From: Armatimonadota bacterium
Lineage (GTDB): Bacteria > Armatimonadota > Fimbriimonadia > Fimbriimonadales > Fimbriimonadaceae
Direction of reading: 5' to 3'
DNA length: 64,000 nt
Assembly (NCBI GenBank): GCA_031400935.1
Contig: JANNQV010000017.1
Location: 1 to 64,000 of the forward strand
Below the pieces are notes generated by a model. It did not search any database. It saw only the letters and a program-made list of their open reading frames with translations, and was not told where the DNA came from. Position numbers and translations under genes: made by a program. Positions 175 to 57,729 of the stretch are shown piece after piece; position 1 is the stretch's first letter, and each line of letters begins with the position of its first letter.

Positions 175-296
175 TTTGGATTGTGGATTGCGGATTGTGA
201 ATTGTGGATTGTGGATTGTGGATTGCGCATAACCTATAACCTATAACCAACAACCAACAACCAACAACCCACAACCAACAACCAATAACCAATAGC
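175..296. repeat. Bipartite heptamer array: (GGATTGT)n then (AACCAAC/AACCTAT)n
   Basis: Degenerate 7-nt tandem repeats read directly; G/T arm about 175-226, C/A arm about 231-296. Confidence 0.9.
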
Positions 297-309
297 AAAA
301 GAAGTACAT

Positions 310-343
310 AAAAATGCCCCAACAATTCGTTGAGGCATTTTTT
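310..343. terminator. Intrinsic terminator of the PEP-CTERM gene (possibly bidirectional)
   Basis: AAAAATGCCCCAAC-loop-GTTGAGGCATTTTT hairpin just past the stop at 362. Confidence 0.75.
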
Positions 344-361
344 GTGAGGAGAGTTTCGAGT

Positions 362-1198
362 TTACTTGCGTCGTCGTCGAATAAAGGCAACTGCGCCGAG
401 ACCGAGGGCAACCATTGTTGCTGGCTCAGGTACTGCTGTTCCCCTAACGATGAACGGAAGGTCCTGAAAAACATCAGGCTCCGTAGCTGGGTTTCCGGCG
501 TCGAAAATGGGTACCCATGTTCCATTCAACTGCAGGGCATTCGCACCAGCAGGACCGCGGGAATCTTGATGAGTGGTCGTAGGACCAAATGCTGTGCCAA
601 GATTCGTTGCCACTACTCCCCAATCAATCCAATACGTTCCAGCAACAAGTGTCTGGCTCATATTCCAAGTTATTTCGTGAACACGTCGAGTAGTGCCAGG
701 AGCCGTACCAGGAGCAGGTGAATTGGTGCAGAAAATGCGATTCACGATTCCTGAAGCACCAGATGCATCCCAAACGATAGTGCTTGATGCACCACCATAG
801 GTCGCTGTTCCGACGATACTACCAACACCAGGAGTACCGTTCCAAACGTTCATCGTACCGCCGCTAAACGGGCTCGTCAACGTTCCGGTTTGATAGGCAT
901 AGGTTCTGAATCCCGTCACGTTCCATCCAGCGCCTGTGACTGTGAAGTCGTCTGCCAGGCGAAACGCACCTGTAACCGTTGAACCAGCATTGGTGTTGGA
1001 ACCCAACTGAACGCCAGCACCATTGGCTTGGACCTCGCTCCATCGTGTTCCAGCACCTGCGGCCACACCTGAGCGAGTCGTTGTGACTGCGTTAAGTGCA
1101 GCAACGTTTACGTTGCCTGATTGATTGCTATATAAGTTCTGTGCAAATGCGCTAGCCGAAGCGACAGTCGCTAATGCAAGAATAGTTAAATTTCTCAT
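362..1198 (-). CDS. PEP-CTERM sorting domain protein
   Basis: Signal peptide MRNLTILALATVASASAFA; C-terminal VPEPATMVALGLGAVAFIRRRRK; GGAGG RBS. Confidence 0.9.
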   Translation of the reverse strand: MRNLTILALATVASASAFAQNLYSNQSGNVNVAALNAVTTTRSGVAAGAGTRWSEVQANGAGVQLGSNTNAGSTVTGAFRLADDFTVTGAGWNVTGFRTYAYQTGTLTSPFSGGTMNVWNGTPGVGSIVGTATYGGASSTIVWDASGASGIVNRIFCTNSPAPGTAPGTTRRVHEITWNMSQTLVAGTYWIDWGVVATNLGTAFGPTTTHQDSRGPAGANALQLNGTWVPIFDAGNPATEPDVFQDLPFIVRGTAVPEPATMVALGLGAVAFIRRRRK

Positions 1199-1347
1199 TT
1201 TTCCTCCCATACAAATTCCCGGAGGCCTAACAAGACCAGCCGATTCCCTATTCTATGTCATTTTTGAGCGAAAGTACGCCAGAAATCGAAAAACCTGGTA
1301 CGTTTGCTAGTTAGAAAGACCACTGGCTGGTATTTTGGTGCCTTAAG

Positions 1348-1436
1348 TTGGAAGATGGCGGTTGGCGGCTGGCAGTAAGCGGCTCTCGGAAACCCGACAA
1401 CTAACAACCAACAACCAACAACCGATAACCAACAAC
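1348..1436. repeat. Bipartite heptamer array: (TGGCGGT)-like then (AACCAAC)n
   Basis: ATGGCGGTTGGCGGCTGGCAG followed by AACCCGACAACTAACAACCAACAACCAACAACCGATAACCAAC. Confidence 0.8.
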
Positions 1437-1469
1437 AAAAAGTCCCCAGAACTTCTGAGGACTTTTTGT
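1436..1469. terminator. Intrinsic terminator downstream of tuf
   Basis: CAAAAAGTCCCCAGA-loop-TCTGAGGACTTTTT hairpin flanked by A and T runs. Confidence 0.8.
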
Positions 1470-1485
1470 CAAACTAACGTAGAAT

Positions 1486-2811: not shown

Positions 2812-2812
2812 G

Positions 2813-2952
2813 GGATTTTGGGAATTGGTTATTGGTGTTATCGGTTGTCGGCTATAGGTTGTTGGTTATACAAGCGCAGACTTCATTTTTTAGAAAATCC
2901 AACAGCTTAGAGAATTTCACAAATTTCCCAATAAAGTCCATTCATTCCTTCC
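2813..2952. repeat. Heptamer array (GGTTATT/GGTTGTC) followed by a degenerate C/A-rich arm
   Basis: TTGGTTATTGGTGTTATCGGTTGTCGGCTATAGGTTGTTGGTTATA, then AAATCCAAC...AAATTTCCCAAT...CATTCCTTCCC. Confidence 0.7.
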
Positions 2953-7013: not shown

Positions 7014-9149
7014 CTATCTTCCGCCTTGAGCCTTGGCAATGATTTCCGTCGCAATGTTTCCAGGAACCACTTCGTAGTGCGAAGGCGTCACGTTCGGCGT
7101 GGCACGGCCTTGAGTCAAAGATCGCAATGTCGTAACGTAGCCAAACATTTCGGAAAGGGGCACTACGGAATTGATCACAGTAGTGTTACCCATCGCAGAT
7201 TCTTGCCCCTCGATGCGCCCTCTACGCTTGTTGAGATCGCCGATCACATCACCCACGCTTGCTTCAGGTGTGGTGACTTCAACGTGCATGATTGGTTCCT
7301 TGATGACTGGCTTCGCAGCCTTCATCGCTGCCTTAAAGCCGAGAATCGCAGCCTGCTTAAATGCATTCTCGTTCGAGTCAACATCATGGTAGCTGCCCTC
7401 TAAGACAGCGACTTTTATGTCCACAACAGGATATCCAGCAATCGTGCCATTTCGAATCGCATCTCGAACGCCCTTCTCAATCGCCGGAATGTATTCCTTT
7501 GGAATAGATCCGCCAACAACTCGATTTTCGAATGAAAAACCTGCGCCTGCTTCTTGAGGTTCGATTTGAAGCCAGCAATCGCCATATTGACCGGAACCGC
7601 CAGTCTGGCGGACAAATTTGCCTTGAGCCTTAGAAATGACCGTCGCAGTTTCGCGATACGCAACTTGCGGCTTGCCTTGGTTTGCTTGAACTCCGAATTC
7701 TCGATTCAGGCGATCTACGATGATTTCAAGGTGTAGTTCGCCCATTCCAGAAATAATCGTTTGCCCCGATTCTTGATCGGTAAATACTCGGAAAGTGGGG
7801 TCTTCTTGCGCCAATCGGTGCAATGAGGAACCCAATTTCTCTTGGTCAGCCTTCGATTTTGGCTCGATTGCAATTTGAATAACCGGTTCCGGAAACTTGA
7901 TGGATTCAAGTGCAATCAGGTGATCTGGATCGCAAATCGTGTGCCCAGTGTTCACATCGCCTAGGCCAATCACGCCAACGATGTCGCCCGCATTTACTTC
8001 GTCAATATCGCTTCTAGAGTTGGCATGCATTTCCAAAATTCTGCCGACTCGCTCGGTTCGAGTTCGAAAATCGTTTGTCGAAGGTTCTCGGTAGGTAACT
8101 TCAATCTGCGAGCCCTTTTTGAGTGTTCCGGAATAGACTCGAATGAAGGTCAAACGGCCGACATATTTGTCGGACATGATTTTGAACGCCAAGGCCGAAA
8201 ACGGCTGCTTGTCGTCTGGGTTTCTTTCAATCTTCTCTTCCGTATCAGGGTCAACGCCAGCAATCGCACCCACATCAAGTGGCGAAGGAAGGTAATCAAC
8301 TACGCAGTCAATCATGGCCTGTACGCCCTTGTTTTTGAAAGACGAACCCGAAATCATAGGAACGATTTTGTTTGCCAAGGTTCCAATTCTAAGGGCGCTT
8401 CGAAGTTCGGCTTCGCCGATCTCTTTGCCATCTAAGAATCGCTCCATGATCGAGTCATCGCAATCCGCGATGGCTTCAATCATCTTTTCACGATATTCGG
8501 CGGCAATTGCACGCAAATTCTCAGGAATCTCTGTTTCGCGGAAAGTCTTACCCTTGTCGTCATCAGTATCGTAGACCGATGCCTTCATCGTGATCAGATC
8601 AACATAGCCAAGGTAGCCGCTTTCGGCACCAATTGGAATCTGAATCGGGGCGGCGTTAGCTCCCAATCGGTCCTTTGCGCGAGCCAAAACCGAGAAGAAA
8701 TCTGCGCCTAACCGGTCCATCTTGTTCACATAGATGATGCGTGGGACTTTGTATTTGTTCATTTGGCGCCAAACCGTTTCGGTCTGAGGCTGAACTCCGC
8801 CTACTGCGCAAAGCACGCAAACCGCGCCATCGAGAACGCGAAGCGAGCGTTCGACTTCAACTGTAAAGTCAACGTGGCCGGGAGTATCAATAATGTTGAT
8901 TTTGTGCTCGGGCTTGTCGCCTTGCGAACCACTCCAGAAGCATGAAGTTGCGGCGGAGGTAATCGTAATTCCCCGCTCTTGCTCTTGCTCCATCCAGTCC
9001 ATAGTTGCGGCGCCTTCATGCACTTCACCCATCTTGTGCGACTTACCGGTATAGAACAGAATTCGTTCTGTTGTTGTTGTTTTGCCAGCATCAATGTGCG
9101 CGGCGATTCCGATGTTTCGAACTACGTTTAGAGGATGTGTACGAGGCAT
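7014..9149 (-). CDS. fusA: Elongation factor G
   Basis: [47 protein letters not shown]. Confidence 0.99.
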
Positions 9150-9189
9150 AGTGTTTCCTTTCTCCTAAGAGATTAGAGTGATTGGCGAA

Positions 9190-9660
9190 TTAGAATCTGT
9201 AATGAGCGAACGCCTTGTTGGCTTCTGCCATTCGGTGCGTATCTTCGCGCTTTTTGATAGCAGCGCCTGTTCCGCTGAAGGCGTCGAACAATTCGCCTGC
9301 AAGCCTATCGGTCATGGTTTTGCCCGAACGCTTCCGAGCAGCCTCAACTAACCATCTTAAAGCCAAAGTCCTTCTTCGGTCTGGGCGAACTTCCATAGGA
9401 ACTTGGTAAGTCTGTCCGCCAACTCGGCGAGGTCGAACTTCTACGTTTGGCATCGCGTTTTGGATTGCCTTGTCAAAAACTGTTGTGGCTTCTTCGCCCG
9501 CTTTTTCAGCGGCGGTTGCAATTGCACCGTAAAAAATTCGTTCGGCAACTGTCTTTTTGCCTCGCATCATCATTCGGTTGATGAATCTCTGCATCATTTC
9601 TGAACCATACACTGGGTCAGGCTTGATTTCTCTTTTGATTGGTGGTCCTTTTCTTGGCAT
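9190..9660 (-). CDS. rpsG: 30S ribosomal protein S7
   Basis: [26 protein letters not shown]. Confidence 0.99.
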
Positions 9661-9698: not shown

Positions 9699-9807
9699 GT
9701 TATTGGTTGTTAGTTGTCGGTTATTAGTTGTCGGTTGTCAGTTTTTGGTTGTTAGTTGTCGGTTGCAGTTATTCAAATCCAAAATCCACAATCTAAAATC
9801 CAAAATG
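9699..9807. repeat. Bipartite heptamer array between rpsL and rpsG: (GGTTGTC/AGTTGTC)n then (AATCCAA)n
   Basis: Tandem 7-mers read directly. Confidence 0.9.
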
Positions 9808-10203: not shown

Positions 10204-10389
10204 TTGTTCTTGGTTGTCGGTTTTCGGTTGTTGGTTATTGGTTGTTGGTTATTGGTTGTTGGTTATTATTGTAAGTTATCAGTTGTAAGTTATCGGTTGT
10301 CGGTTGTCAGTTATTAGTTCTGTGTTGTCGGTTGTCCGCTCTCCGCACTCCGCTCTACTCCGATTCCTCCATACCATCCATACAATTCA
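10204..10389. repeat. Bipartite heptamer array upstream of rpsL: (GGTTGTT/GGTTATT)n then (CTCCGCA/CTCCGCT)n
   Basis: Long 7-mer array at about 10208-10335, then CCGCTCTCCGCACTCCGCTCTACTCCG. Confidence 0.9.
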
Positions 10390-11443: not shown

Positions 11444-12859
11444 TTAGCCTGGCGGGAAATAATAGTCGTACCCGTCAATATCAAAAACGACTGGACCTGC
11501 CATGGCAGTTGGTCTCGCTGGGACAGTTGGGTCTGGCAACGCTACGAGAAAGGGATATGGAGGATGGGACTGTTCCGTATCGCCACTGACCACATCGCGA
11601 TACACAAGTCCGTAACTCAAGTTTCCGATCATAGTCTGCCAATAACCAGGCATAGCCCAATTTGCTGCCGGGTTCATATATGTTTGTCCGCCTAGATCCC
11701 ATCGATAAGCCAGAGCGGCATCATGTACAAGACTGCTCGATCTAATAAATTGCTGATGCATAGTGAAGAAAATATGAACGTACAGCCCAGTATCGGCTCC
11801 ATTCGAACCAATAGGAACAACTTTGTTCGTAATGAAAGGTGCTGGTGGATCGCTACCTGACCTGAATAGCTGCTGCAAATCTCCACTAATTCCCAGTGAG
11901 CTTTGTAGAGTAAGTAAGAACGTAGAAACATCAGAACAGTTTCCAGGCTGAATTCCCTCGTCGTACATATGGTTTAGCAACTTGCGCAAGCCGAAAGTTA
12001 CCCCTAAGTCGCTACTGTCTGGGTCGGGCCAATTTACCCAGACGGCACTTACGTCAGGATCACCAAGATTGTAAGCAAAATCGTACGCCCAATAGAGCCC
12101 AAATGTAACGTCGTGAGAAACATCAGTAGGCCCAGCTTTTCCATAGCCGTAATTGCAGGACTTCTCTAACACATCCGTCCATGGAACCGTTTGATGTTCA
12201 ACTGGTGCTTCGTCGGTCAAGTAAAGGCGATAAGTTTCTGTTCCAGTGGAACCAATCGGATCTTGAATAAGGTCAAGTCCTGCGGGAGCCCCGCTAATCG
12301 CAAATAAATGAGAGCCATAGTTCAGCCAACCGAGTGCCACATAATTGGGAACTCCCGTGATTGTAACCGTCACATCGACAGTTCCTCCACTTCCAGGTAT
12401 GGAAACGAAAGTTGGAGCAGCGTTGGTTAAATAGATAGTTTGCGCAGGACGGTCAAAATAGGCAGGCACTTCAAGGCGTGCATTTTCCATCGTTAACGTT
12501 CCAGTAATGGAGCTTGGGTTCTTGTTCGTGAACCTTCGCCTTAAAGTTACTGTTGACCCTCGGCGATAGACAATTCTATCGGTCATTACGGCACCTGGCA
12601 CATAGTTTTGCTCTAAACTAGGATACTGTCCACCACCAACTGGAGGAGATTGTGGCGATCCATCGGGGTTCGAGTAATACCAATACCGGTTTGTAGCTGG
12701 AAAATTACCTGTAAAGTCAACCTGCGTAACGAATACCCACAAATTTGCAGGTGCTAGTGCGACGCACAAAAAGAGAAGAACGAGAACGCTACAGAGCTTG
12801 CCTTGCCTTGCCTTGCCTTGCCTTGCCTTGCCTTGCCTTGCCTTGCCTTGCCTTGCCAT
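11444..12859 (-). CDS. Secreted hypothetical protein with a transglutaminase/papain-like Cys-His-Asp pattern and an SSR in its signal peptide
   Basis: M(ARQGK)4 + LCSVLVLLFLCVALAPA; GNCSDVSTFL...LG, FTMHQQF, VHDAAL. Confidence 0.75.
   Translation of the reverse strand: MARQGKARQGKARQGKARQGKLCSVLVLLFLCVALAPANLWVFVTQVDFTGNFPATNRYWYYSNPDGSPQSPPVGGGQYPSLEQNYVPGAVMTDRIVYRRGSTVTLRRRFTNKNPSSITGTLTMENARLEVPAYFDRPAQTIYLTNAAPTFVSIPGSGGTVDVTVTITGVPNYVALGWLNYGSHLFAISGAPAGLDLIQDPIGSTGTETYRLYLTDEAPVEHQTVPWTDVLEKSCNYGYGKAGPTDVSHDVTFGLYWAYDFAYNLGDPDVSAVWVNWPDPDSSDLGVTFGLRKLLNHMYDEGIQPGNCSDVSTFLLTLQSSLGISGDLQQLFRSGSDPPAPFITNKVVPIGSNGADTGLYVHIFFTMHQQFIRSSSLVHDAALAYRWDLGGQTYMNPAANWAMPGYWQTMIGNLSYGLVYRDVVSGDTEQSHPPYPFLVALPDPTVPARPTAMAGPVVFDIDGYDYYFPPG
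12798..12857 (-). repeat. Perfect pentanucleotide SSR (GGCAA)12
   Basis: 12 exact TTGCC units on the plus strand; starts at the G of the ATG at 12859. Confidence 0.98.
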
Positions 12860-12957
12860 AGCAATATTGTACAGCAATTTTCAGTGGATGTTACACATTT
12901 CTCAAAAAACTTTCAAAATGGACTCTTTTTCCAAGTTTCCTAAGTTGCATCGAAACT

Positions 12958-12975: not shown

Positions 12976-13135
12976 TCACACAAGCGTGGAGCGCGATCAG
13001 GTGCCGGGGAGACTCGGAAAGAGAGCGAGCTGCAAAGAGCGGACGGCGGAGAGTGGAGAGCGGAGTCTTTTACCGTTCAATTCCAGACGAAACCGAACCA
13101 ATCCGAACAAAACCCCTACGCTTGAAGGAATAACC
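12976..13135 (+). ncRNA. rpsB 5' leader (t44 / S2 autoregulatory RNA)
   Basis: CACA-CAAGCGTGG pairs with CTACGCTTG (13116-13124); conserved GGTGCC and GGAATAACC elements; lies upstream of rpsB. Confidence 0.7.
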
Positions 13136-13145: not shown

Positions 13146-13964
13146 ATGGCAGAACTCAGCATGAAAGACTTGCTGGAGTCAGGCGTTCATTTTGGACACC
13201 AGACCCGGCGATGGAACCCGAAAATGAAGCGCTACATCTACGGAGCGCGAAACGGGATCTATATTCTCGACCTACACCAAACGATGAAGCTTTTCGAGGA
13301 AGCCCTCGAATTCGTCAAAGGCATCGCCGAAAACGGCGGCAACGTCCTCTTCGTTGGAACTAAAAAGCAAGCCCAAGCCGCAGTTAAAGAAGCTGCTCAG
13401 AAATCTGGAATGTTCTGGGTCAGCGAGCGTTGGCTTGGCGGAACCCTTACCAACTGGAAAACGATTCAGCTTCGAGTGCAAAGACTTAAAGAGCTTGACC
13501 GAATGGAAGCCGAAGGCTATCTTGCGCGACTTCCTAAAAAGGAAATGCTCAAGAGGCTCGAAGAGCGAGCAGAGCTCAACCGATTCCTCGAAGGCATTCG
13601 AAACATGGTTACGATTCCGGAATGCATGGTTGTGATTGACGTAAACAAAGAAGACATTGCGATCAAAGAAGCACGAAAGCTGGGAATTCCTATCGTTGCA
13701 GTAGTGGATACGAACTGCGACCCAGACGTTGTGGACTACGTGATCCCTGGAAACGACGACGCGATTCGAGCCGTAAAACTCGTGACAAGCAAGATCGCAG
13801 AAGTGATTTTGGAAGCTAGGCCGCTAGACGAAGCACTTACAGAAGGCACATTGACCGAAGATGGCGAGATCGCTGAAGACGAAGACAAACCAGTTGAGTT
13901 TGGAGCGGTCGAGCAGGAGTTGCTGCGAGCGTTCGGCGCGGACGAAGTGTTAGAAGGGGTTTAG
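13146..13964 (+). CDS. rpsB: 30S ribosomal protein S2
   Basis: [37 protein letters not shown]. Confidence 0.99.
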
Positions 13965-14068
13965 GGTGTAGGGGTTTAGGGTTTGGGGTCGAGGGTTTAT
14001 AGGTTTTAAGGTTTTAAGGTCTTACAAGTCCAACAAGTCCGACCAAACCACCCCAAAAACCCAACACA
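13957..14068. repeat. Bipartite array between rpsB and tsf: (GGGTTTA)-type G arm then C/A arm
   Basis: GGGGTTTAGGGTGTAGGGGTTTAGGGTTTGGGGTCGAGGG ... ACAAGTCCAACAAGTCCGACCAAACCACCCCAAAAACCC. Confidence 0.85.
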
Positions 14069-14904: not shown

Positions 14905-14973
14905 GATGGTATAGGGTGCAGGGTATTGGGTATAGGGTAAAGAACAAACTTCCATGCCCCATACCCCATTCCC
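14905..14973. repeat. Bipartite heptamer array: (GGGTATA)n then (CCCCATA)n
   Basis: GGTATAGGGTGCAGGGTATTGGGTATAGGGT ... CCATGCCCCATACCCCATTCCC. Confidence 0.8.
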
Positions 14974-16641: not shown

Positions 16642-16700
16642 GAATCAATTATGCCATCCAAGCACGGAAACTTGAAAACTCTCCAAACACCCATTTCCCC

Positions 16701-16742
16701 GATGACCCAATGACCCAATGACCTAATAACTCAACGACCCCC
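16701..16742. repeat. Octamer array (ATGACCCA)n after ftsA
   Basis: GATGACCCAATGACCCAATGACCTAATAACTCAACGACCC; the same unit recurs at about 44476 and 46272-46415. Confidence 0.8.
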
Positions 16743-34981: not shown

Positions 34982-35062
34982 GTTTGGGGATGTGGGGGAT
35001 GCGGGGGATGCCGTAAGTTTCCGCTCGTCCCTGCATTCCAGCATCCAAGCATCCACAATCAC
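34982..35062. repeat. Bipartite array: 9-mer (GGGGATGYG)n then (GCATCCAA)-type arm
   Basis: GGGGATGTGGGGGATGCGGGGGATGCC ... GCATTCCAGCATCCAAGCATCCACAATC. Confidence 0.8.
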
Positions 35063-35094
35063 AAAGTGTCTAAGGGCAGCACTTTCAAATTGGT

Positions 35095-39497: not shown

Positions 39498-39643
39498 GGA
39501 GTGGCACTCCGGCGAGGCATAGAGCTCGTCCAATTGCTTCTCGTACGAGGTTGCTACAGCGACGAATACGATCCTATGATGAACGTGTCACACAAATAGA
39601 TCTCAATCCAACTTGTTCTGTGCCTTGGCAGAAAATCTGTACT

Positions 39644-40219: not shown

Positions 40220-41635
40220 ATGGCCATGAAGTATTGGATTTCTCTTCTCGCTCTTGCGACTGCATCGAGCACATTTGCCCAAGGCAACCCCGACATTTTG
40301 AAAGCGATTATCGAAACCGGAAAATCGCAAAACCAGACCCGAATTCACCTTGAAACGATCACCGAGCAAATCGGAGCACGGCTCACAAGTTCCCTTGCCC
40401 TTGAGCAAGGCTCGATCTGGGCGATGGAACAGTTCACCAAATTCGGCTGCACGAACGTTCACCTGGAAAATTGGGGCGAGTGGCCGGTTGGCTTTGACCG
40501 CGCCAAGACCGGACATGTGGGAAGAATGACTTCGCCATCAGTTCGAGATTTTCAGTTCACTACGGCAAGCTGGATGCCAGGAACCAAAGGGCTTCAGAAA
40601 GGACGAGCAGTTATGGAGCCGTTGACAATGGACGAATTTGTTAAAAATCGAAGCTCTTTTCGAGGCGCATGGATGCTCATGTATCCTGCCGGAACAGCAA
40701 ATTTGCAAACCAAAGAAATCCGCGACGCGATTTTAGCCGAAGCGATCAAAGCTGGCATCAAAGGGCAAATTTCCGGTTCCAGGAATGAGCTAGTTCTTAC
40801 TGGCGGAAGATACAGCATCAAATGGGAAGAATTGCCCAAGGACGTAAAAATCACGATCCGCAAGAGCGATTTCGAGGCAGTTACGACTGCAATCAATACT
40901 GGCAAGAAAGTTGAACTCGAATTCGACTTGAAACAGAGTTTCCGAAAGGGACCGATTGTTCATTCAAATGTGGTTGCCGAAATTAGGGGTTCTGAAAAGC
41001 CCGACGAAATCGTCATCGTCAGCGGACACTTTGATAGTTGGGATGGCCCAGGTTCACAAGGTTCGCTGGACAATGGAACTGGAAGTAGCGTTGCTTTAGA
41101 GTGCGCTCGCATTTTGAATCTAGTGGGCGCTAAGCCAAAACGAACCATAAGATTTATTCTCTGGACAGGCGAAGAGCAGGGGCTGTTTGGTTCCAGAGCA
41201 TACGTAGAGGCTCACAAAGCCGAAATGCCTAAGATCAGCGCATGCTTAGTTGATGATGGCGGGACGAACTATTGGGGCGGATTTGTTGGACTTGAAACTC
41301 AGCGATCCTACTTCCAACCTTCCATTGACCTTTTGGTAGCTGCATTCCCAGAACTGCCGATGAGATTTAACGCCACTGCGCGAATGCCTCGCGGCGGCGG
41401 CAGCGATCATGCGAGCTTCAATGCAGTGGGTGTTCCTGGATTCTTCACGATGGAAACGGGCGTGAGCGACTACAACTATGTTCACCATACTCAGCATGAC
41501 AAATTGGCTGCGGCGATCAATGCGTATTTGATTCAATCAAGTACTGCGGCGGCGGTAACTTCGTACAATTTGGCATGTGCAGATTCGATGTTGCCGAGAG
41601 ATGTTGTTCCGACAACACCGCCTCCTGGGAATTAG
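40220..41635 (+). CDS. Secreted M28 family metallopeptidase
   Basis: Signal peptide; GHFDSWD, DNGTG, GEEQGL.GS, SDH..F, HHTQHD. Confidence 0.92.
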   Translation: MAMKYWISLLALATASSTFAQGNPDILKAIIETGKSQNQTRIHLETITEQIGARLTSSLALEQGSIWAMEQFTKFGCTNVHLENWGEWPVGFDRAKTGHVGRMTSPSVRDFQFTTASWMPGTKGLQKGRAVMEPLTMDEFVKNRSSFRGAWMLMYPAGTANLQTKEIRDAILAEAIKAGIKGQISGSRNELVLTGGRYSIKWEELPKDVKITIRKSDFEAVTTAINTGKKVELEFDLKQSFRKGPIVHSNVVAEIRGSEKPDEIVIVSGHFDSWDGPGSQGSLDNGTGSSVALECARILNLVGAKPKRTIRFILWTGEEQGLFGSRAYVEAHKAEMPKISACLVDDGGTNYWGGFVGLETQRSYFQPSIDLLVAAFPELPMRFNATARMPRGGGSDHASFNAVGVPGFFTMETGVSDYNYVHHTQHDKLAAAINAYLIQSSTAAAVTSYNLACADSMLPRDVVPTTPPPGN

Positions 41636-41668
41636 AACCGGACTCCACCCCCAACCCCCTCCTCATCT

Positions 41669-42526
41669 TCATTCTTCGGATAAGTAGGGGGCTAGCGACT
41701 TCACAATTCTCTCAAATTCATCATTCTCATACCTGTCGAGATCAACCAAGGATTGACTACCATTAACCCCACCGGCCTGAAACCACGCCTCAAGCGCCAA
41801 ATACAGTTTCCGGTCTGGGTCCAATTCGCTTGCCAATCGAATCGCTTTTAGAGCCTTCGGCTTCTGTTCTGCGCCCCAAAAAGCGACGGCGGATTTCATG
41901 AGAATGTAGTCGTCCCCAGGCGACAAATCGTGCGCCGCTTTTAGAGGCTCCAAGGCTTCTGAAAATTTTCGCATTTCCATTAGCAAATCGGCGAGCCAGT
42001 AGTGATAAAAGGAATTCGTAGGATCAACAATGGCGGCCCTTTCAGCGGCACGAATTGCGCCGGAAAGCATCTTTGCGTCTCTGCAAACTTCAGCTAGCTT
42101 GAAATGGTAGTTCGAATTGCTCGGCTCCGTTGCGATTGCACGTTCTAGTTGGTCTATAGCTAACTGAAACTGCGAATTCCGGCGATGAATTTCTGCTAAA
42201 ACAACTCTCGCCTCTGCACAATCGCCATCAGATTCGATTACTCCATTCAATATTGCCAGAGATTCCTCTTCTCTGTCCGACATTTCAAGCGCTATCGCCA
42301 AATCTACACGAGCCGATGAACTTCCCTTGGATTGTTCAACTGCTCGCCCAAAGTGCTCTAAGGCTAGCTTCGTGTTCCCTGCTTCCAAGGCCGCATTTCC
42401 GAGTTTCTTAGAATCCTCGGGTGTTTTCCCCTTTTTTGAAAGCCATGAAGGAGCTGGTCCGGCGTTTTTCGGGTCAAATTGCACAACACCGAACAAGTCG
42501 CTCAGATGCTTGCGTTCGTCGCTCAT
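41669..42526 (-). CDS. Tetratricopeptide repeat protein
   Basis: Several TPR-like units (LG..A...G....A...F..A; A...DP). Confidence 0.85.
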   Translation of the reverse strand: MSDERKHLSDLFGVVQFDPKNAGPAPSWLSKKGKTPEDSKKLGNAALEAGNTKLALEHFGRAVEQSKGSSSARVDLAIALEMSDREEESLAILNGVIESDGDCAEARVVLAEIHRRNSQFQLAIDQLERAIATEPSNSNYHFKLAEVCRDAKMLSGAIRAAERAAIVDPTNSFYHYWLADLLMEMRKFSEALEPLKAAHDLSPGDDYILMKSAVAFWGAEQKPKALKAIRLASELDPDRKLYLALEAWFQAGGVNGSQSLVDLDRYENDEFERIVKSLAPYLSEE

Positions 42527-44364
42527 AACTTAAGCTTACGCGAACTCGAAATATCCCTGCTTGAAGTTTCCAAAGGTCGAAATGCGAGCGTTATCGGGTA
42601 GCTGCTTCCAGAAAGCGGAATAGTCTGCAAAGTAAAGAGTCTTGAAGCTCCAGGCTCTAATCGAAGCCTCAGGATCCTGCGCTCGTCTTTGGGTTGAAGA
42701 AGCGGGGTACGAAGAATTTGCCCATTTACTGCAAACAGTGCCCCTGAATACCCTGCACTAGCTTCAAATACAACTTCCACATCTGCGGCAACTGATGTTG
42801 GATTTTCAACTCGTGCTCGAATCGTGTAGATCACGCCAAAATTGCCATCGAGGTACATTTCACCGCTTGAATTGGCGATTGGTTGCTGTCCAATTCTTAC
42901 AAAACTGTGCCGCCCGCCGACCAAATAATTGACATCTAGTTCCTTAAATGGCACAGGGTAAATGTGAGGTGATATCAGCGTACTTTCGCCATCATCCCCC
43001 CGAATCGGCATCGCACCTAGAACACGCCAAGGGGTATTCGATGCCAATGTTTGCGACCACCGGTAATCGGGTTGAAAAGGCAGTTTCGCATCTGCTCGAA
43101 CCATCACAGAATTTGGCCCGCCTTCCAATAGCGCGAGGTAAATCAGTCCGCTAACCGTTTCGTGCGGAGCCAATCGCTTAAGCGAAATCGGCAACGAGCA
43201 ATGAGGAGGAATCGTAAGAATCTCTCCCGAACTGCACATCCAATTTCGTAAAAACGAACCGCCAGCTTCAATGCCAGCAAATACAGGATTCTTGTCAACT
43301 TGCGAATCGCCAGGAATCAACAAGACCGTTGCGGGCCTATCAGATTTGTTTATAACTTGTGCGTGAAACAGAAGTCCCTTTCTAGCTTCATTCACATGGT
43401 GAAATAGCATCCGAACGGGCTTGCCGGATTGAATTCGCCCGCCAAAAACTTGACCGATATTCTCTAGCGTTTCTGGAAAATTGCAGTACCAAAGTTCAGT
43501 TTCACTCTGCACAACTTTTGGCGCATTTCGGATCACTACGTAAACGATGCCTTCACTTGTTTGAGATTCGGGTGCGGAAACATTGACCCGAACCGGAATC
43601 GTCTTTGCTTCTCCAGGAGCCAAAGAACCAATTTCAGGAACGTCAAAGCGAATTTCTGAACTAGGCGTTGTTTTCAATTGATTCCAAATTGCAGATTCAA
43701 CCGCCCCTTTGCAAATGGAACCGATCGCAGGAACCCCAGTTACAGTTACCGCGGCATTTTGGGGAAACATTGCCGCAAACGGCATCACTCGCACTGAAAT
43801 CGTTGACATTTGCGAACCTGAAGTCACGACTATCTTCGCTGAACCCGCCATGCCGCCTGTCAAAACTATATTGCCTGGCACTCTTCTAGCACTTACAATT
43901 GTTTCATCAGAAGAGGTTACTGATGCTTTCAATGCTAATCTTCCCGTCAACGGGATTCGAACATCCTTTCCATTCCCTATAGAAACAGATTTCGAGCCAA
44001 CGGAAAGCGGCGGAAGCGAAAGCGCCTTGTTCAGGTTCGCCGCCCATGATTTCGCAAGGTCAAGCGGACTTGTGTTTGCCGCTTCGGAATCTTCGGTCTC
44101 AACCCGAAAAACGCTTCGGTCATTCAAAAAGATTTGTGCTTCTGAACCTTTAGATTCGGCGCGGGCTTTCGCGCCGCCGGAATAACGATTGAGCGAAGAA
44201 ATGAAGGATCGGGTGCGGCTTGTGGGGTTTCCAGATCGAATCACCAATACCGGAGATTCATTCACATAAACAATGTTTCCAAAAAGCCGAGCCGGTGCGG
44301 CAAAAGCATTGCCACACATAAGCCCCAAAATAGGCCCAACCAGCCAAAGTCCCCGTTTCCCCAT
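42523..44364 (-). CDS. Secreted hypothetical protein with Ig-like / pilus-formation N-terminal-like segment
   Basis: Signal peptide from MGKRGLWLVG...AFA; SSDETIVSAR...IVLTG..AGSAKIVVT; coupled to the TPR gene by an ATGA overlap. Confidence 0.75.
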   Translation of the reverse strand: MGKRGLWLVGPILGLMCGNAFAAPARLFGNIVYVNESPVLVIRSGNPTSRTRSFISSLNRYSGGAKARAESKGSEAQIFLNDRSVFRVETEDSEAANTSPLDLAKSWAANLNKALSLPPLSVGSKSVSIGNGKDVRIPLTGRLALKASVTSSDETIVSARRVPGNIVLTGGMAGSAKIVVTSGSQMSTISVRVMPFAAMFPQNAAVTVTGVPAIGSICKGAVESAIWNQLKTTPSSEIRFDVPEIGSLAPGEAKTIPVRVNVSAPESQTSEGIVYVVIRNAPKVVQSETELWYCNFPETLENIGQVFGGRIQSGKPVRMLFHHVNEARKGLLFHAQVINKSDRPATVLLIPGDSQVDKNPVFAGIEAGGSFLRNWMCSSGEILTIPPHCSLPISLKRLAPHETVSGLIYLALLEGGPNSVMVRADAKLPFQPDYRWSQTLASNTPWRVLGAMPIRGDDGESTLISPHIYPVPFKELDVNYLVGGRHSFVRIGQQPIANSSGEMYLDGNFGVIYTIRARVENPTSVAADVEVVFEASAGYSGALFAVNGQILRTPLLQPKDERRILRLRLEPGASRLFTLQTIPLSGSSYPITLAFRPLETSSRDISSSRKLKL

Positions 44365-44420
44365 AAGTAAGCACCTAGAGTACCTTTCCCAGTACTTATT
44401 CCATGTATTGTCTGGAAAGT

Positions 44421-44555
44421 TAGATGGATTGGATGGGTCGTAGGGTTTGGGGTTTGGGGTTTGGGGTGCAGCCCAATGACCCGACACCCTACCCTATACC
44501 CTGATCCCTAAACCCCAAACCCTACGACCCAATTACCCTATGACCCTTTGAACCC
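44421..44555. repeat. Bipartite array with a perfect 21-bp inverted repeat
   Basis: GGGTCGTAGGGTTTGGGGTTT (44435-44455) and AAACCCCAAACCCTACGACCC (44510-44530). Confidence 0.92.
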
Positions 44556-44897
44556 GAATTCAATCAATCTCCAACGACCGAAACCTCTTCTCCGTACCGT
44601 CTAGATTCTCTGTTAAAACTTGATGAGCCGTGGCAACGCGAAGCTGAATCAAGGTCGCTTACTCTCTTTCCATAGCATCAACTGGAAACCGTTTTGTGTC
44701 TGCGCAGCCGTTCATCTCAATTTGTTCTGTGGCTGCCGCAACCCAATTCCGTAGCAGCAAGGGTTAAGTTTAAGAGATTGAACGCCGGTTCAGAAATCAA
44801 GGATTCATTGAGTTCAAAAACCTGGTATTTCAAATATCAACCTATCCCTTATACTGATACTACGTGCCTATTTCTGAGGGCGCGGAAGGAGCTCGAA

Positions 44898-46145
44898 ATG
44901 ATAAGAGTAGAAACTAATTTATTGACGTGTGTTTCCGTTGTTTTGGCGGTGCTGGCAGCACCATTTGCAAGGGCGACGATTATTGTGCCGACTAATCAAC
45001 CCACAATTCAAGCCGCAATCAATGCCGCGCTGCCAGGTGAAGACATCTTCGTCCTGGCTGGAACCTATCCCGAAGGAACGATCAACGTGACGCTTCCTGT
45101 GCAGATCTATGGACCAAATGTCGGCGTGACTCCGACACAGGCTCGGGCAACGGAAGCGCGGATCTTGGGGGGATTCGTGCTGACGTCTGACAACGTAACC
45201 ATTCAAGGTCTCGAAATTATGGAGTGGGCCGCAGATCCCTTTTCGTTTAGACGTGCAGTTTCGGGGCCGCAGGCGCTTAATGGGATCGACATTTCCTACA
45301 ACTGGATGCACCAGCCCATCGCCGCCGGTATAACCGTAGCAGTGGAAATGGGCGATTATAATCTCGGTGTCCGATCCAGCAACCTTGCGATCCGATCTAA
45401 TCTTATCAACGACCAAGTGCCTGGAGTAGGCACAGGAATATTTTTGTATGCATCAGACGGCGCTGAGGTCGTTGGCAACATGATCGTCATGGCAACGGTA
45501 ACGACAGCAAATGGAGACTATGGTTTTCCTGGAATTGTCCTCGATGGAGTCCATAGCGCAATAGTGGCGAAGAACGACATTGACGTTGGCCAATCAAATC
45601 CAAATAACAGCAGTGCCGCATATGGAATCGGAGTTCAAGCTGGCTTAGACGATATCCACGATGTGCGCATCGCGAACAATCGGATCAGGAACTGTGTTTC
45701 GGGAGTGCTATCGAGCAGCCTAGGATTTGCCGTACGTAATCTTTCGATCTCAAAGAACGAAATCGTCGCCAGGATGTTCGGAGTTCAATTTCAAGCAATA
45801 AACGTTGGGACAAATGCGGTATCTCACGATGTCGTGTCAATCAACAACAATCACTTTACGGCCGGCAACTATTGTGTCGGCATTTTAGGAGGATCAGCGC
45901 CAAGTCGAACAATGTCGGATTTCGTGATTCGACGCAATTGCTTCGCCGCCACAACAGGTTCGACCGGAGTGTTCGGCGTTGTCCTTTCCTCGAACGCGAC
46001 CATTCCGACGAATGGAGGCGTCGTGGATGCGAGGTTCAACTACTGGGACGCCGCGAACGGACCCTCTACGGTTGGCACCGGCTCAGGTTTAAGAGTAGGT
46101 ACGCGAGTGGATTTCAGGCGTTGGCTCGAAACCTGTCCGCATTAA
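44898..46145 (+). CDS. Secreted right-handed parallel beta-helix protein
   Basis: AAGGAG RBS, signal peptide, VP...PTIQAAINAA.PG..I.V.AGTY.E, repeated I..N.I, DARFNYW....GP. Confidence 0.88.
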   Translation: MIRVETNLLTCVSVVLAVLAAPFARATIIVPTNQPTIQAAINAALPGEDIFVLAGTYPEGTINVTLPVQIYGPNVGVTPTQARATEARILGGFVLTSDNVTIQGLEIMEWAADPFSFRRAVSGPQALNGIDISYNWMHQPIAAGITVAVEMGDYNLGVRSSNLAIRSNLINDQVPGVGTGIFLYASDGAEVVGNMIVMATVTTANGDYGFPGIVLDGVHSAIVAKNDIDVGQSNPNNSSAAYGIGVQAGLDDIHDVRIANNRIRNCVSGVLSSSLGFAVRNLSISKNEIVARMFGVQFQAINVGTNAVSHDVVSINNNHFTAGNYCVGILGGSAPSRTMSDFVIRRNCFAATTGSTGVFGVVLSSNATIPTNGGVVDARFNYWDAANGPSTVGTGSGLRVGTRVDFRRWLETCPH

Positions 46146-46162
46146 AAGGACTTGAAGGCAAG

Positions 46163-46417
46163 TGGGACATAGGGGACGTGGCAGGCGCCGAAGCCGTTCG
46201 TCCCTTTTAGATTCCTTAGGGAAGCAAGATGCGCAGATGGATTGGATGGTTCGTAGGGTTTAGGGTATGGGGTGCAGCCCAATGACCCAATGTCCCGACA
46301 CCCTACCCTATACCCCGAACCCATTCACTGCAGTGACTCATTTACCCAATGACCCGACACCCTATACCCTGAACCCTAAACCCATTTGCCTAACTGACCC
46401 AGTGACCCAATCACCCC
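46163..46417. repeat. Bipartite array; direct-repeat copy of the 44421 element
   Basis: AGATGGATTGGATGGTTCGTAGGGTTTAGGG...GGGGTGCAGCCCAATGACCC...CCCGACACCCTACCCTATACCC shared with 44422-44501. Confidence 0.9.
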
Positions 46418-46418
46418 G

Positions 46419-46844
46419 TCAGTCAATCTCCAGCGTCCGAAACCTCTTTTCAGTCCCGTCCAGATTTTCCGTAAGAACATGATACGCCCATGCCACGCGC
46501 CGCTGAATGAGCGCTGCCTGCTCGCGTTCCTTCGAGTCCACTGGGAAGCGCTTTGGATCTGCACGGTCGCTGAGTTCGATGTACTTTTTTCGGATTTCGA
46601 CGAACTTCGCTTTCTCCGGCACTCCCAGTAGCTTTCGTGCATAAGCGGGCCTTTCAGCATCGGTCAATTCGCGAGTTGTGACGATGTATTCCTCTACCTC
46701 TTCAGATGGACGATGTGATCTAGGAGACTTTAGTGCCTCTTCAAGCTCCTTTTCCGCCGATTCGTAGTCAACTCCAGATATGCGGTCCCATTCGCGGCCA
46801 ACATAGCCGCGCAAGATGTCGTACGCTCGCTTCCCTTCGCTCAT
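46419..46844 (-). CDS. J-domain-like protein lacking the HPD motif
   Basis: ARKLLGV...A.FVEIRKKYIEL...ADPKRF...VAWAYHVL. Confidence 0.7.
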   Translation of the reverse strand: MSEGKRAYDILRGYVGREWDRISGVDYESAEKELEEALKSPRSHRPSEEVEEYIVTTRELTDAERPAYARKLLGVPEKAKFVEIRKKYIELSDRADPKRFPVDSKEREQAALIQRRVAWAYHVLTENLDGTEKRFRTLEID

Positions 46845-47542
46845 GATTTGACTCCGAAGACCTGTTCGGCTTCGTCAAATGAGTTCGTAAGTGCATGAAG
46901 TTGAGATAATGTTTCTCGCATAGTTTCCTGTTCGCCTTCGCTTCCTGAAGTCGCTGCCAAAGCAAGCCTTGTTCTCAATTCTGACAAAAGTGCGACGGCT
47001 TGTGAAAGGTTAGCATCAATCCCTTGAATTGCCACTCTAGCCCTCTGCACTTGTTCAAGTTGAGATTCGTGAGCTTGAATTCCTGATTCTAACATTTCGC
47101 GCTCTGGTTGGGTTGTTGCCAACTCTACATTTGCCCGGAGCCGAGTGATCGTTGCCTCAAGATTTGAGGAGCTATTCAATGCGCTGTTCAATTGGTCACG
47201 AGTGTTCAACAGCTTAATTGACTGCTCCATTAGATTATCGCACTCTTCCTGAGCTTCCTTTCCCATGACTCTGACGAGTCCATTATCCTTATTGATTTCA
47301 ATAATCTCGTTGATCTCTCGGCCTAGCTTGACAAGTGGCATCAGCCGAGATCGGTTTTCATTCTTGACTTGATCTAGCGGATGTGAGTTGCGAGATTGAG
47401 ACGACAATTTAAAACTGCCTGCAAGTATCATAACGACGAATCCGCCAAAACCGAGCACCATCATCTCAGGGCGTTGAAGGATCAGACCCATAAATCCGAG
47501 GCCAACAAACATCCAGCCTACAGGATGAATCTTGAATTTCAA
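46841..47542 (-). CDS. Hypothetical membrane-anchored helical protein
   Basis: Two N-terminal TM helices, then a long coiled-coil region; ATGA overlaps on both sides. Confidence 0.75.
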   Translation of the reverse strand: MKFKIHPVGWMFVGLGFMGLILQRPEMMVLGFGGFVVMILAGSFKLSSQSRNSHPLDQVKNENRSRLMPLVKLGREINEIIEINKDNGLVRVMGKEAQEECDNLMEQSIKLLNTRDQLNSALNSSSNLEATITRLRANVELATTQPEREMLESGIQAHESQLEQVQRARVAIQGIDANLSQAVALLSELRTRLALAATSGSEGEQETMRETLSQLHALTNSFDEAEQVFGVKS

Positions 47543-55317: not shown

Positions 55318-55452
55318 GGAATACATTCTACACGCTTCTGCCTATCTTTTTTGAAAAAATTTCACCGATAAATTACGTATCAATGAGATACGATCACGTC
55401 TCTAATATAGTGAAGCTGCATGGCGGCGATGCTGTGCTTCAAAGGAGAAACT

Positions 55453-57144
55453 ATGAAAAACTTGCTACTAATGCTCTTAGCTGTTGCGGCCCTTGCGTTG
55501 GCCGGATGTGGTGGAGGCAGCGGAGGTTCCGCATCAAACGCTGATGCTGGATTCTTCGCAACCGACAACCTTTCTGACAATTACGATGGCGTTTGGGTAA
55601 CGATCCGAAAGGTCCAACTTCGCAAAGCTGATGACTCCTTCATCACAATTTTTGACGACGCAATCGGCAAAATTGTCAATTTGCGCTCCCTCAACGATGG
55701 TGCTGAACGATACGCGTTCTTCGGCGAAGACAGCGTTCCACAGGGAACTTATACGGGTCTTCGAGTCGAACTTGATCGCGATGTCGTTTTATTTCCAACA
55801 GGTTCTTCCACTGGTCAAAACCGAGTTTTTGATGATGCATATGGCAACGATAGAGCGCGCCTTGACCTAATTTTTGGCTCAGCAAAAACCGTGGGTCCAA
55901 GTGGCTTGAACTTTGTTTGCGACTTCGACCTTTCCGCTTGGGAAGATGTTGGTGGAGAAATTCGCAACGCAATCATTGATGATTCGCCAGGCAATGGGAT
56001 GAATGATCCTGATCGCCACGAAAATGAAGATTACGACGGCAGAATCAACGAATTAGCTGGAACAGCTCCAAACTTCACATTTGTACTTACAAGCGAATCC
56101 AACAATAAGCTTGAGGTGGAAGCAAACTCGGACACAGTTGTTTTCAACAACAATGGACAACCGAACCCAACCTTAACTAACGGGGCAAGAATTGAAGTAC
56201 GAGGAAAGTTCAACCCTGCTACAGGAAAACTTCTCGCAACTTCCATCAAAATCAAGGGCTCCGGCGACGACGATGAATTCGAAGTCAAAGGGGTTCCCAG
56301 TTTGGCAAACGCCGCGGGCCGAACATTTAAGGTAACGACTAGAGAATGCGAAGGTTTTATCCCTGGCGGAACACTTGTGAACATCGTAGTTACCGATGCA
56401 ACAAGGTTCTTTACTGACAATGGATTGGTTCTAACGGAAGCTCAGTTCTTTGAATTGTTGCCGATTGACAGTGGTGGTTTAGAAGTAGAGGTCGAAGGCG
56501 CAGTCTACAACTTTGAAACAAATACATTGACAGCCAAAAAGTGCAAGATCGAACACGAAGGCGAAAATCAAGAGCATGAAGCCGAAGCACGAGGCGTGCC
56601 AAGCAACTTGCTTCCTGAGCCTGGAACATTTGACATCGCCCTCACAAGCTGGGAAGGCTTCAGTGCAACAGCCGCCCAGATCATTCACATCACGACAAAC
56701 GGTGAGACCGAGTACAAAGATGGCAACAACGAAAAAATCTCCAAAGGAGCATTCTTTGAGTTACTTGCCATTGCTACGACGGTGAAAGTAGAAGGAAGGT
56801 ACGAAAACGGAACCATTGCTGCACATGAACTCACTTTGCGAGTCAATAGTGGCGGTGGAGGCGGCGAAGATCCTCACGAAATCAAAGGCTCGCCTTCCGA
56901 AATTGATCTAGAAACACGTTCTTTCTCAGTTTCTCTCGTAGAGTGGTTTGGGTTCAATGGCCAGACAGGCCAGCAGATCAACGTCGTGATGAACTCCAAT
57001 GCAAACTATAGGGACAACAACGGCGAGACGATGACGAAAGAGCAGTTCTTTGGCAAGCTGAGCGAAGGCTGGCTAGCCGAAGTGGAAGGAGTCGTTTCGG
57101 GCTCGAATATGGCTGGCGTCAAAGCTAAGCTAGACGACCACTAG
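55453..57144 (+). CDS. Lipoprotein with DUF4382-like N-domain and repeated DUF5666-like OB domains
   Basis: Lipobox LAGC + GGGSGG; TD...Y..V.VTI..V, P.GTY...RV, DFDL; repeated VEVEG/EVRG units. Confidence 0.8.
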   Translation: MKNLLLMLLAVAALALAGCGGGSGGSASNADAGFFATDNLSDNYDGVWVTIRKVQLRKADDSFITIFDDAIGKIVNLRSLNDGAERYAFFGEDSVPQGTYTGLRVELDRDVVLFPTGSSTGQNRVFDDAYGNDRARLDLIFGSAKTVGPSGLNFVCDFDLSAWEDVGGEIRNAIIDDSPGNGMNDPDRHENEDYDGRINELAGTAPNFTFVLTSESNNKLEVEANSDTVVFNNNGQPNPTLTNGARIEVRGKFNPATGKLLATSIKIKGSGDDDEFEVKGVPSLANAAGRTFKVTTRECEGFIPGGTLVNIVVTDATRFFTDNGLVLTEAQFFELLPIDSGGLEVEVEGAVYNFETNTLTAKKCKIEHEGENQEHEAEARGVPSNLLPEPGTFDIALTSWEGFSATAAQIIHITTNGETEYKDGNNEKISKGAFFELLAIATTVKVEGRYENGTIAAHELTLRVNSGGGGGEDPHEIKGSPSEIDLETRSFSVSLVEWFGFNGQTGQQINVVMNSNANYRDNNGETMTKEQFFGKLSEGWLAEVEGVVSGSNMAGVKAKLDDH

Positions 57145-57162
57145 GTTCACATTCCTAATCCA

Positions 57163-57192
57163 TTGCGTCAATCCCTATTGGGATTGACGCAA
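57163..57192. terminator. Perfect hairpin after the lipoprotein gene
   Basis: TTGCGTCAATCCC-TATT-GGGATTGACGCAA, followed shortly by TTTTT. Confidence 0.65.
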
Positions 57193-57537
57193 TCCATTTT
57201 TGGTTGACATAGAATAGATAAATGAAATTCCAAGTGATTTTTTCGTACGAGGATGAATACGCTGGCTATGTAGCTGAAGTGGAGCGCGGAGCCACAAATG
57301 AGCAACACTTCCAGTTACATGGGAATTAGCTCCGCATTCAGGTCCGCGGAGCCACAATTAAGTTAGATTGCTAACCACACTAACGTAAGCTCCGCGATTG
57401 AAACGCGAGCATCCGATTAGTTGGGAGAGTAATAGCAGCTTTCTGAATTTTGATCATTGGTCGTTTGTTGACCCAATACCTAGCCTGTTTCGATATGCAG
57501 AAATTTAGGTTCAAATGGTATAGTTCAGAGCTAAGTT

Positions 57538-57613
57538 GGCGCCGTGCCCAAGTGGTTAAGGGAAGGGTCTGCAAAACCCTCATTCAGCAGTTCGAATCTG
57601 CTCGGCGCCTCCA
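57538..57613 (+). tRNA. tRNA-Cys (GCA)
   Basis: GGCGCCG/CGGCGCC acceptor stem, AGGGT-CTGCAAA-ACCCT anticodon arm, TTCGAAT T-loop, U73 discriminator, encoded CCA. Confidence 0.97.
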
Positions 57614-57620
57614 GATTTTT

Positions 57621-57729
57621 TAGGGTTTAGGATTGTGGATTGTGGATGATAGCGGAGTGCGGAGTGCGGAGAGCGAACTACCGATAACCAACAACTAATA
57701 ACTAGTAACCAAAAACCAACAACCGAACC
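57621..57729. repeat. Composite array: GGGTTTA / (GGATTGT)n / (GCGGAGT)n then (AACCAAC)n
   Basis: Three G-rich heptamer families in series, followed by the C/A arm. Confidence 0.9.

Follow-up and report, generated by a model that had tools for sequence, protein, structure and literature searches.

Short tandemly repeated repetitive (STRR) sequences of cyanobacteria include heptamer repeats. The repetitive extragenic palindromic (REP) sequences, with the bacterial interspersed mosaic elements (BIME) and the REP doublets forming hairpins (REPIN), occur as hundreds of extragenic hairpins near stop codons and form mosaics of several families, with one cognate gene, that of a REP-associated tyrosine transposase (RAYT), within the repeats. 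End-to-end fusions of telomeres are tandem arrays in head-to-head order, first G-rich and then C-rich. Here we describe intergenic arrays of 7- to 9-nt words, in which a G/T-rich arm precedes a C/A-rich arm, in the opening 64 kb (hereafter the window) of contig C17 (JANNQV010000017.1) of an Armatimonadota genome (G000; 2.97 Mb in 67 contigs, 95.6% complete). In the reading that we favour and hold to be probable, the arrays are gene-less, nested and recombined descendants of a cassette that likely inserts after stop codons and carries a gene for a four-helix-bundle protein (PF05635/TIGR02436), a predicted arm-binding helper. We observed the polarity itself, the gene between matched arms, sites in filled, gene-less and pristine states, and turnover of arms across orthologues and alleles.

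Several described systems share parts of this picture. Intervening sequences (IVS) of 23S rRNA with an S23p/PF05635 open reading frame (ORF) are present in Coxiella and Leptospira, and a part in their mobility was proposed for the ORF (PMC4990558). The accessory protein Avd of diversity-generating retroelements (DGR) has a four-helix-bundle fold described as homologous to that of the PF05635 protein (PMC10053308, in part). The GGGAATC and GGGGA(C/T)T heptamers of Xanthomonas and Nostoc show a positional bias, the G-rich arm lying near the left gene whatever its direction, and polymerase slippage is the standing guess for the origin of 7-base repeats (Rehm 2015, PMC4692102). TAACTGA direct repeats lie, in their C/A-rich form, upstream of start codons, and the covered text of that paper makes no mention of 'four helix', 'S23' or 'intervening' (MacGregor 2015, PMC4679880). 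Heptanucleotide hairpins in P6b of the trnL intron include two word classes at one site (PMC3488679). For Xanthomonas and Nostoc, part of the polarity rule is already in print (Rehm 2015, PMC4692102); the pan-phylum polarity count, the mismatched and nested arms, the turnover in a genus and in a population, and the negative test for reverse transcriptases (RTs) are added here. Searches outside subscription journals and bioRxiv supplements returned no published link between heptamer arms and the four-helix-bundle family, and we know of no function for the four-helix-bundle IVS protein.

Polarity and composition of the arrays

Arms were detected at periods of 7, 8 and 9, and their words were sorted by eye into 14 families. 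Period 7 was the commonest in the genome (425 of 1,614 rows from Tandem Repeats Finder). Chance was rejected as the source of the arms, as 99 of them scored at least 12 in four contigs versus 0 in a fourth-order Markov simulation of equal length. Being dispersed, intergenic tandem heptamers of variable copy number, the arrays belong to the STRR/heptamer repeat class.

The arrays listed in an earlier note on the window were all present with the G/T-rich arm before the C/A-rich arm, the C side being weak at 2813 and degenerate at 13020, and the array near 16701 consists, as noted, of a C arm alone (16698-16740). No C-then-G array had been seen in the window, and the same held for the whole genome, where 95 of 95 two-armed gaps were G-then-C by word-family patterns. 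It was also true of 62 clusters of adjacent arms (versus 0 C-then-G among 395 clusters) and of consecutive arms at most 150 bp apart (84 versus 0 in reverse), and the counts lost no C-then-G heptamer array by dropping 40 arms whose G/C skew is neutral. The order was independent of gene direction, again as claimed: based on our own gene caller (2,765 genes), whose gap count leaves out 77 arms within called genes and 9 at contig edges (86), all 81 two-arm gaps were G-then-C, with 24 and 19 between co-directional, 22 between convergent and 16 between divergent genes. Gene orientation was therefore rejected as the cause of polarity, the order being the same in all four orientations. In the congener (G001; 560 contigs), 854 kb of DNA was compared in 143 stretches, 43 of which were chosen from earlier matches, and 45 of 45 two-armed gaps were G-then-C.

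One word family was followed across GTDB. It was found in G-first order at 124 loci in 4 of 64 scan parts, from which about 2,000 stretches were extrapolated, and these loci span cyanobacteria, Chloroflexota, Acidobacteriota, Planctomycetota, Bacteroidota and others. Reverse, C-first order was found in 8 stretches, 4 of them junctions of tandem G-then-C units. Both this ratio of about 2,000 to 8 and the 95 of 95 gaps agree with the G-then-C order of telomerase-type repeats. Replication strand was rejected as the cause of order in paired arrays, which local GC skew at third codon positions (GC3 skew), the proxy used in place of a replichore map, splits 25:26. Lone arms, including those within genes, do track this skew, at 53:25 for G arms and 34:44 for C arms (p = 0.004). 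The genome has rho, yet cyanobacteria, which are not known to have Rho, supply many of the 124 G-first loci, so Rho avoidance is not the general cause of the G-first order. Nor is G-first a general rule for hairpins, because those flanking DUF559 genes in this genome are C-first.

The two arms often belong to different word families, as had been noted from the window; genome-wide, 48 of 99 pairs were mismatched and 51 of 99 gene-less arrays had matched arms. Families were joined within one arm in 33 of 251 gaps, as had been noted for the 57621 array. Partial pairing between mismatched arms was considered and rejected, as such arms had no pairing advantage over mismatched pairs drawn at random (p = 0.69). 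The arms are not always complementary, in line with the argument of the earlier note that hairpin selection is not enough to explain them. Matching exceeded expectation: a common family was present in both arms of 51 of 95 arrays (24.4 expected), and 38 of 75 single-family pairs matched (14.9 expected; maximum of 27 in 10,000 permutations). In 14 multi-family arrays the shared family was outermost in 11 and innermost in 3 (p = 0.03). A mismatched word pair followed across GTDB gave 6 G-first stretches versus 2 in reverse, both reverse ones being junctions; because this pair is so rare, frequent mismatching appears to be special to this lineage.

The median distance from an arm to a stop codon is 13 nt, and to a start codon 55 nt. 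Short G+C stems with a U tract, typical of intrinsic terminators, are not what the arrays contain: terminator-like hairpins stand apart from them (e.g., 1433-1471) and half of the arrays are mismatched. Word arms are also nested within REP-like doublets (e.g., C27:58547 and C23:49408). Captured host coding DNA was rejected as the content of the loops between the arms; among 61 longer loops, 17 have a match at another place in the genome (0 of 61 when shuffled), and the matches listed are mostly other intergenic repeats. Array enrichment beside PEP-CTERM genes was not significant (6 of 17 versus 223 of 1,255, p = 0.10), and in the test of array neighbours the difference in codon adaptation was small.

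A four-helix-bundle gene between matched arms

The genome has a single PF05635 gene, a 372-aa ORF on contig C25 that extends from a GGGTAT-type G arm to the matching C arm. In this gene (locus L043, C25:66288-67406) the four-helix-bundle domain stands behind a ~240-aa unnamed domain, all of it between the arms. The N-terminal domain falls into hypothetical-protein clusters of the Atlas (score 0.96) with no Pfam match, and is cargo captured in the cassette.

Similar loci were collected from a panel of 41 relatives, searched with PF05635 and PF00078, and from 10 genomes of other groups; 92 loci were examined and 78 were scored with our own profile, which matches PDB entry 2GSC, five chains of XCC0516. 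The start of XCC0516 is overlapped by a GGGAATC arm, according to the supplement of Rehm 2015 (PMC4692102). Both arms were present at 54 of the 78 scored PF05635-type loci, and at 43 of these they matched. Their order was G-first at 40, C-first at 1 and neutral at 13. As a control, host genes of this array-rich genome were inspected, and only 1 of 2,645 had matched arms on both sides, with the C arm before and the G arm after it. The earlier suggestion that the arms are the ends of exchangeable cassettes is thus supported for the four-helix-bundle gene, which is enclosed by arms that are replaced, and not for host genes.

PF05635 scored over the cut-off in 17 of the 41 relatives. All nine relatives with a triple GGYNGTT array carry the gene (p = 7e-5, for kin that are not independent), as do 4 of 4 with the GGATTKT pattern. 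The search for co-occurring genes that the earlier note proposed succeeded with PF05635 (9 of 9 array-bearing relatives) and failed with RTs (3 of 9 versus 7 of 32 other relatives). GxxExxY (PF13366) was rejected as a linked gene, having no match in this 95.6% complete genome. Repeat period clustered weakly on the protein tree (8-mers, 6 changes versus 8.7 when shuffled), with bootstrap values that leave this unsettled. Longer four-helix-bundle genes (L048-L052) pair with 9-mer words, some of which are in frame within the coding sequence; L052, when scanned, was of the TIGR04258 suffix type.

Cassettes of the congener were comparable at four sites. One of these is pristine in the present genome, being a 48-bp spacer without arms, and a second is armless. 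A third holds a gene flanked by REP-like repeats that resembles a Y1 transposase in our own reading of its sequence (C15:229.2-229.9 kb). Between groES and groEL this genome has arms of another family without a gene, and inside them an apparent remnant of an older C arm. The groES-groEL junction is filled at 10 loci of relatives, where the G arm begins at or beside the groES stop codon. Nine of the ten encoded proteins fall into one weakly supported group of 12, and a single origin was rejected in the form of strict monophyly (p-AU 0.00016). With strict monophyly rejected, re-invasion and re-wording in place may each have produced the word diversity at this junction.

Alignment of orthologous spacers with the congener, as the earlier note had proposed, revealed replacement of arms: 17 of 65 comparable arms had changed family, a figure that may be too high since the family patterns can overlook a shared family, and in 5 cases one arm only had changed. 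Among 266 orthologous gaps of at least 80 bp, arrays were present in both genomes in 46, in one in 27 and in neither in 193; on unselected contigs alone the counts were 14, 13 and 125. Nine of the 13 window sites could be aligned to the congener, and the words differ wholly at 13020, 44421 and 57612, while at 13957 the congener has no clear array.

Turnover was also seen within what may be the source population. In two sequencing runs of one study, X1 and X2, which are a possible source of the DNA, tuf is linked to the beginning of the window, on a majority contig of depth 21-27, through another PEP-CTERM gene and another array, and the PEP-CTERM gene of the window lies on contigs of depth ~3.5-4, a minority allele. 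The differences of the majority allele match contig C45, which has the alternative PEP-CTERM gene at C45:187-985. For the 173-292 array the second allele has a GGCAGTT-type G arm. The two alleles of the block at ~167-1238 thus carry different G-arm families between flanks that are almost identical. On one side the block ends at the outer edge of the G arm, and on the other it ends within the promoter region, where no array lies. In the congener, a third PEP-CTERM gene occupies the site after tuf. Contigs C17 and C45 begin in the two alleles of this site. At 33000-47500, population variation amounted to nothing beyond one letter. Apparent "joints" that link arrays were set aside, their simplest explanation being cross-matching of repeats.

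Accounts of the origin of the arrays

In the favoured reading, the cassette would consist of a G/T arm, the gene and a C/A arm, and would insert just after a stop codon. Polarity would be inherited from it, as an inverted repeat that begins with G/T words reads G-first on both strands and in either orientation. The head-to-head geometry described in the earlier note is real, and the telomere fusion drawn from it is not needed, because any G-first inverted repeat has the same look on both strands without end-healing. Later copies may land within existing hairpins, and C-then-G order would therefore never form. Mismatched and concatenated arms could then result from allelic crossover together with deletion of the gene, either alone or along with one inner arm. 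An Avd-like pentamer is predicted to bind the tandem words and to assist a host enzyme in copying or inserting the unit, also in trans.

Several observations weigh against this reading. No gene remnant was found in 231 array gaps (best 4.0 bits, versus 11.2 in 1,043 control gaps); because coding remnants are lacking from them, the arrays are not decaying pseudogenes. The genome has 427 arms for one four-helix-bundle gene, and no mobilising enzyme for the cassette was found. The loops are unique (median 38 nt), the one common pair among 79 being a local duplication (44470/46276), and since internal sequence is not shared as in a MITE (miniature inverted-repeat transposable element) or REPIN, the arrays are not MITE-like copies. 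Along the arms there is no gradient of purity or age (p = 0.33). The sense strand has no pairing advantage (14 loci versus 28 antisense, p = 0.07), and in this genome the difference was toward antisense (13 versus 25 loci, p = 0.03). Passive inheritance does not explain the approximately eight different words borne by related genes at groES-groEL, the 10 genomes of other groups were chosen because they bear arrays, and the cassette gives no reason why its first word should be G/T-rich.

Of the alternatives, the one that keeps the gene in the leading role is rather unlikely. Here the Avd-like pentamer and a host polymerase would form a repeat-writing system widespread in bacteria, which would write G/T-rich words of 7-9 bases onto 3' ends just after stop codons in the manner of telomerase, though from many short templates, and would so bracket the protein's own gene, seed gene-less arrays by the hundreds in trans, rewrite arms in place and be the source of the heptamer excess of bacterial genomes.

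Addition of repeats to DNA ends by a separate enzyme is unlikely. Such an enzyme would reiterate a short template, adding G/T words to 3' ends at a break or nick before the ends are joined, and the four-helix-bundle gene would encode the cofactor of the writer and be trapped itself. It predicts much of what was seen, namely strict polarity, mismatched pairs without a pairing advantage, loops that are unique and free of gene remnants, the swapping of a single arm at a fixed site (5 cases) and both arms re-worded around related genes, and the four-helix-bundle fold is also that of the RT accessory Avd (PMC10053308, in part). However, where the earlier note had put forward a template-reiterating polymerase or RT, a telomerase-like RT is not supported: RTs did not co-occur with the arrays in the 41 relatives (PF00078 in 3 of 9 array-bearing versus 7 of 32 others, p = 0.66), and a relative with a closed genome, 97% complete, carries both arrays and the gene while lacking any match to PF00078. 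The 2.5-fold enrichment of matched pairs also speaks against this account, as do the scarcity of mismatched pairs elsewhere (one word pair, 6 GTDB stretches) and the outermost place of the matched family, with no gradient of age from inner to outer words. No template RNA was seen either: Rfam returned tRNA only on the window, and no de novo search was made. Among the armed genes examined, none had an RT beside it. A broken four-helix-bundle gene on contig C358 of another genome (G020, that of locus L057) adjoins an RT, as in a DGR. The only RT found in the present genome is retron-like and lies 10 kb past the window, in a part of the contig (66.2-82.5 kb) where no arm was detected. This gene (L064, C17:73765-75276) scores below the NF042941 and NF038237 cut-offs, has an additional C-terminal part and is a probable defence gene.

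An origin in host selection is just as unlikely. Hairpins or spacers at gene ends would be kept for mRNA stability or translation, lengthened through slippage of the polymerase and propagated by gene conversion, and the gene family would merely favour spacers. Persistence of sites between congeners (the 14, 13 and 125 gaps of the unselected contigs), the closeness of arms to stop codons and the folding of several window arrays, which is better than that of shuffles, are all in its favour. Against it, mismatched pairs make up half of the total and have no pairing advantage over random ones, and among 12 two-armed window arrays whose folding was tested, 5 did not surpass their shuffles. The transcribed strand has no advantage, and because the sense strand pairs no better than the antisense strand there is no support for selection of mRNA stems; a wobble bias toward the transcribed strand was looked for and not found. 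Whole cassettes are cleanly present or absent, identical words are found in distant phyla, and other hairpin families of this genome are C-first (DUF559 flanks).

Finally, it is very unlikely that the arrays are non-autonomous, REPIN-like elements moved by a RAYT-type Y1 transposase or a DUF559 nuclease: REP-like doublets, in which word arms nest, and both a Y1-like and a DUF559 gene are present in the genome, but each of these two genes has flanking inverted repeats of its own that are not heptamers, the gene found between word arms is PF05635, and loops are not common to different loci.

The cassette reading, if true, would tie both the excess of intergenic 7-base repeats and the IVS protein to one gene family. 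Both questions would become testable with one small gene, defined arms and a defined target just past a stop codon, often in groES-groEL. The genus, whose arms are remixed at fixed sites and also within one population, separates insertion of whole cassettes from writing arm by arm.

Window arrays and comparison with described systems

The window begins with a mismatched two-armed array (173..292), in which a G arm of GGATTGT words (173-225) is followed by a C arm of AACCAAC words (229-292). Next to it is the PEP-CTERM protein gene (PF07589; 362..1210, minus strand) of the minority allele (contig depth ~3.5-4 versus 21-35). The array at 1357..1439 has a GGCGGTT/GGCAGT-type G arm and an AACCAAC C arm, and the terminator-like hairpin at 1433-1471 is separate from it. 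Upstream of tuf (2813..2935), a G arm of GGTTRTY words faces a weak C side of two copies of a 9-mer. Two mismatched arrays with GGTTRTY G arms follow, one between rpsG and rpsL with an AAATCCA C arm (9699..9806; same families in the congener), the other upstream of rpsL, where the G arm is long and the C arm CTCCGC-type (10206..10370). The array upstream of rpsB (13020..13112) combines an AGAGCGG G arm with a degenerate C arm; the same place in the congener is taken by a matched pair from a different family. Between rpsB and tsf (13957..14068), GGGTTTA and GGTTTTA G arms begin at the rpsB stop codon and the C side is mixed. The matched array downstream of tsf (14908..14973) is of the GGGTATA-type family, which also brackets the one four-helix-bundle gene of the genome. 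The lone C arm downstream of ftsA (16698..16740) consists of the 8-mer CCCAATGA.

In the second half of the window, a 9-mer G arm and an 8-mer C arm are partly complementary (34982..35060). The matched, multi-family array at 44421..44551 forms a strong hairpin (z -8.2 and -5.5) and is a near-copy of the array at 46240; in the congener the words at this site are different, and so is the gene that lies past the array. The multi-family array at 46163..46416, whose clear G arm begins only near 46240, is a near-duplicate of 44421-44551 with an internal duplication of 61 bp. The gene between these near-duplicates (44694-46145, 483 aa) is without a Pfam match or paralogue, and the congener has an unrelated ~2 kb gene there, flanked by arrays of other words. 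The last array (57612..57729) lies directly downstream of tRNA-Cys (57538-57613) and has three successive families of G words before an AACCAAC C arm; the words of the congener are wholly different. Apart from the arrays, rpsG and fusA are separated by a 60-bp spacer in this genome (window 9139-9190) and by an additional gene of ~224 aa (L068) in the congener. A perfect (CTTGC)12 run (12797-12857) at the start of the gene at 11444-12877 is unrelated to the polarised arrays and is a candidate phase-variation tract.

Compared with described systems, the arrays share the head-to-head order of G-rich and then C-rich tandem repeats with telomere fusions, from which they differ by some 14 word families in one genome, by unique loops and by the gene inside matched arms. 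Unlike telomerase, they have no co-occurring RT (PF00078) and no template RNA found by Rfam in the window. Unlike DGR Avd, the armed genes examined have no RT beside them, and RTs do not track the arrays in the 41 relatives. The resemblance to REP, BIME and REPIN with RAYT lies in the many hairpins near stop codons, the mosaics of families and the one cognate gene inside the repeats; here, in contrast, no catalytic site is known for the cognate gene, the arms consist of tandem words and internal sequence is not shared between copies. TAACTGA repeats, trnL P6b and cyanobacterial STRRs are also degenerate heptamer arrays that change in copy number but, in the parts of the sources covered, are interpreted as regulatory sites or markers with no cassette or gene link. 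The repeats of Rehm 2015 (PMC4692102) are closer, being intergenic heptamer arrays in convergent inverted pairs; one such pair lies between groES and groEL, and an arm overlaps the start of XCC0516. They comprise one word family and were interpreted as G-quadruplexes, and the sections covered do not describe a link to a gene family or mismatched and nested arms.

The ORF-bearing IVS of 23S rRNA (PMC4990558, in part) likewise has a four-helix-bundle ORF between complementary terminal arms and is sporadically present. The filled forms described here, all outside the window, contain an S23p/PF05635 ORF, and 43 of the 54 two-armed gene loci have matched, complementary terminal arms. Unlike the rRNA IVS, the cassettes lie at mRNA gene junctions or after tRNAs and not in rRNA, which is absent from the window, where the arrays lie between protein genes or after tRNA-Cys; their arms are tandem 7-9-mers, and gene-less forms far outnumber the gene. 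By location the unit is not an IVS, and by analogy it appears to work like an ORF-bearing one.

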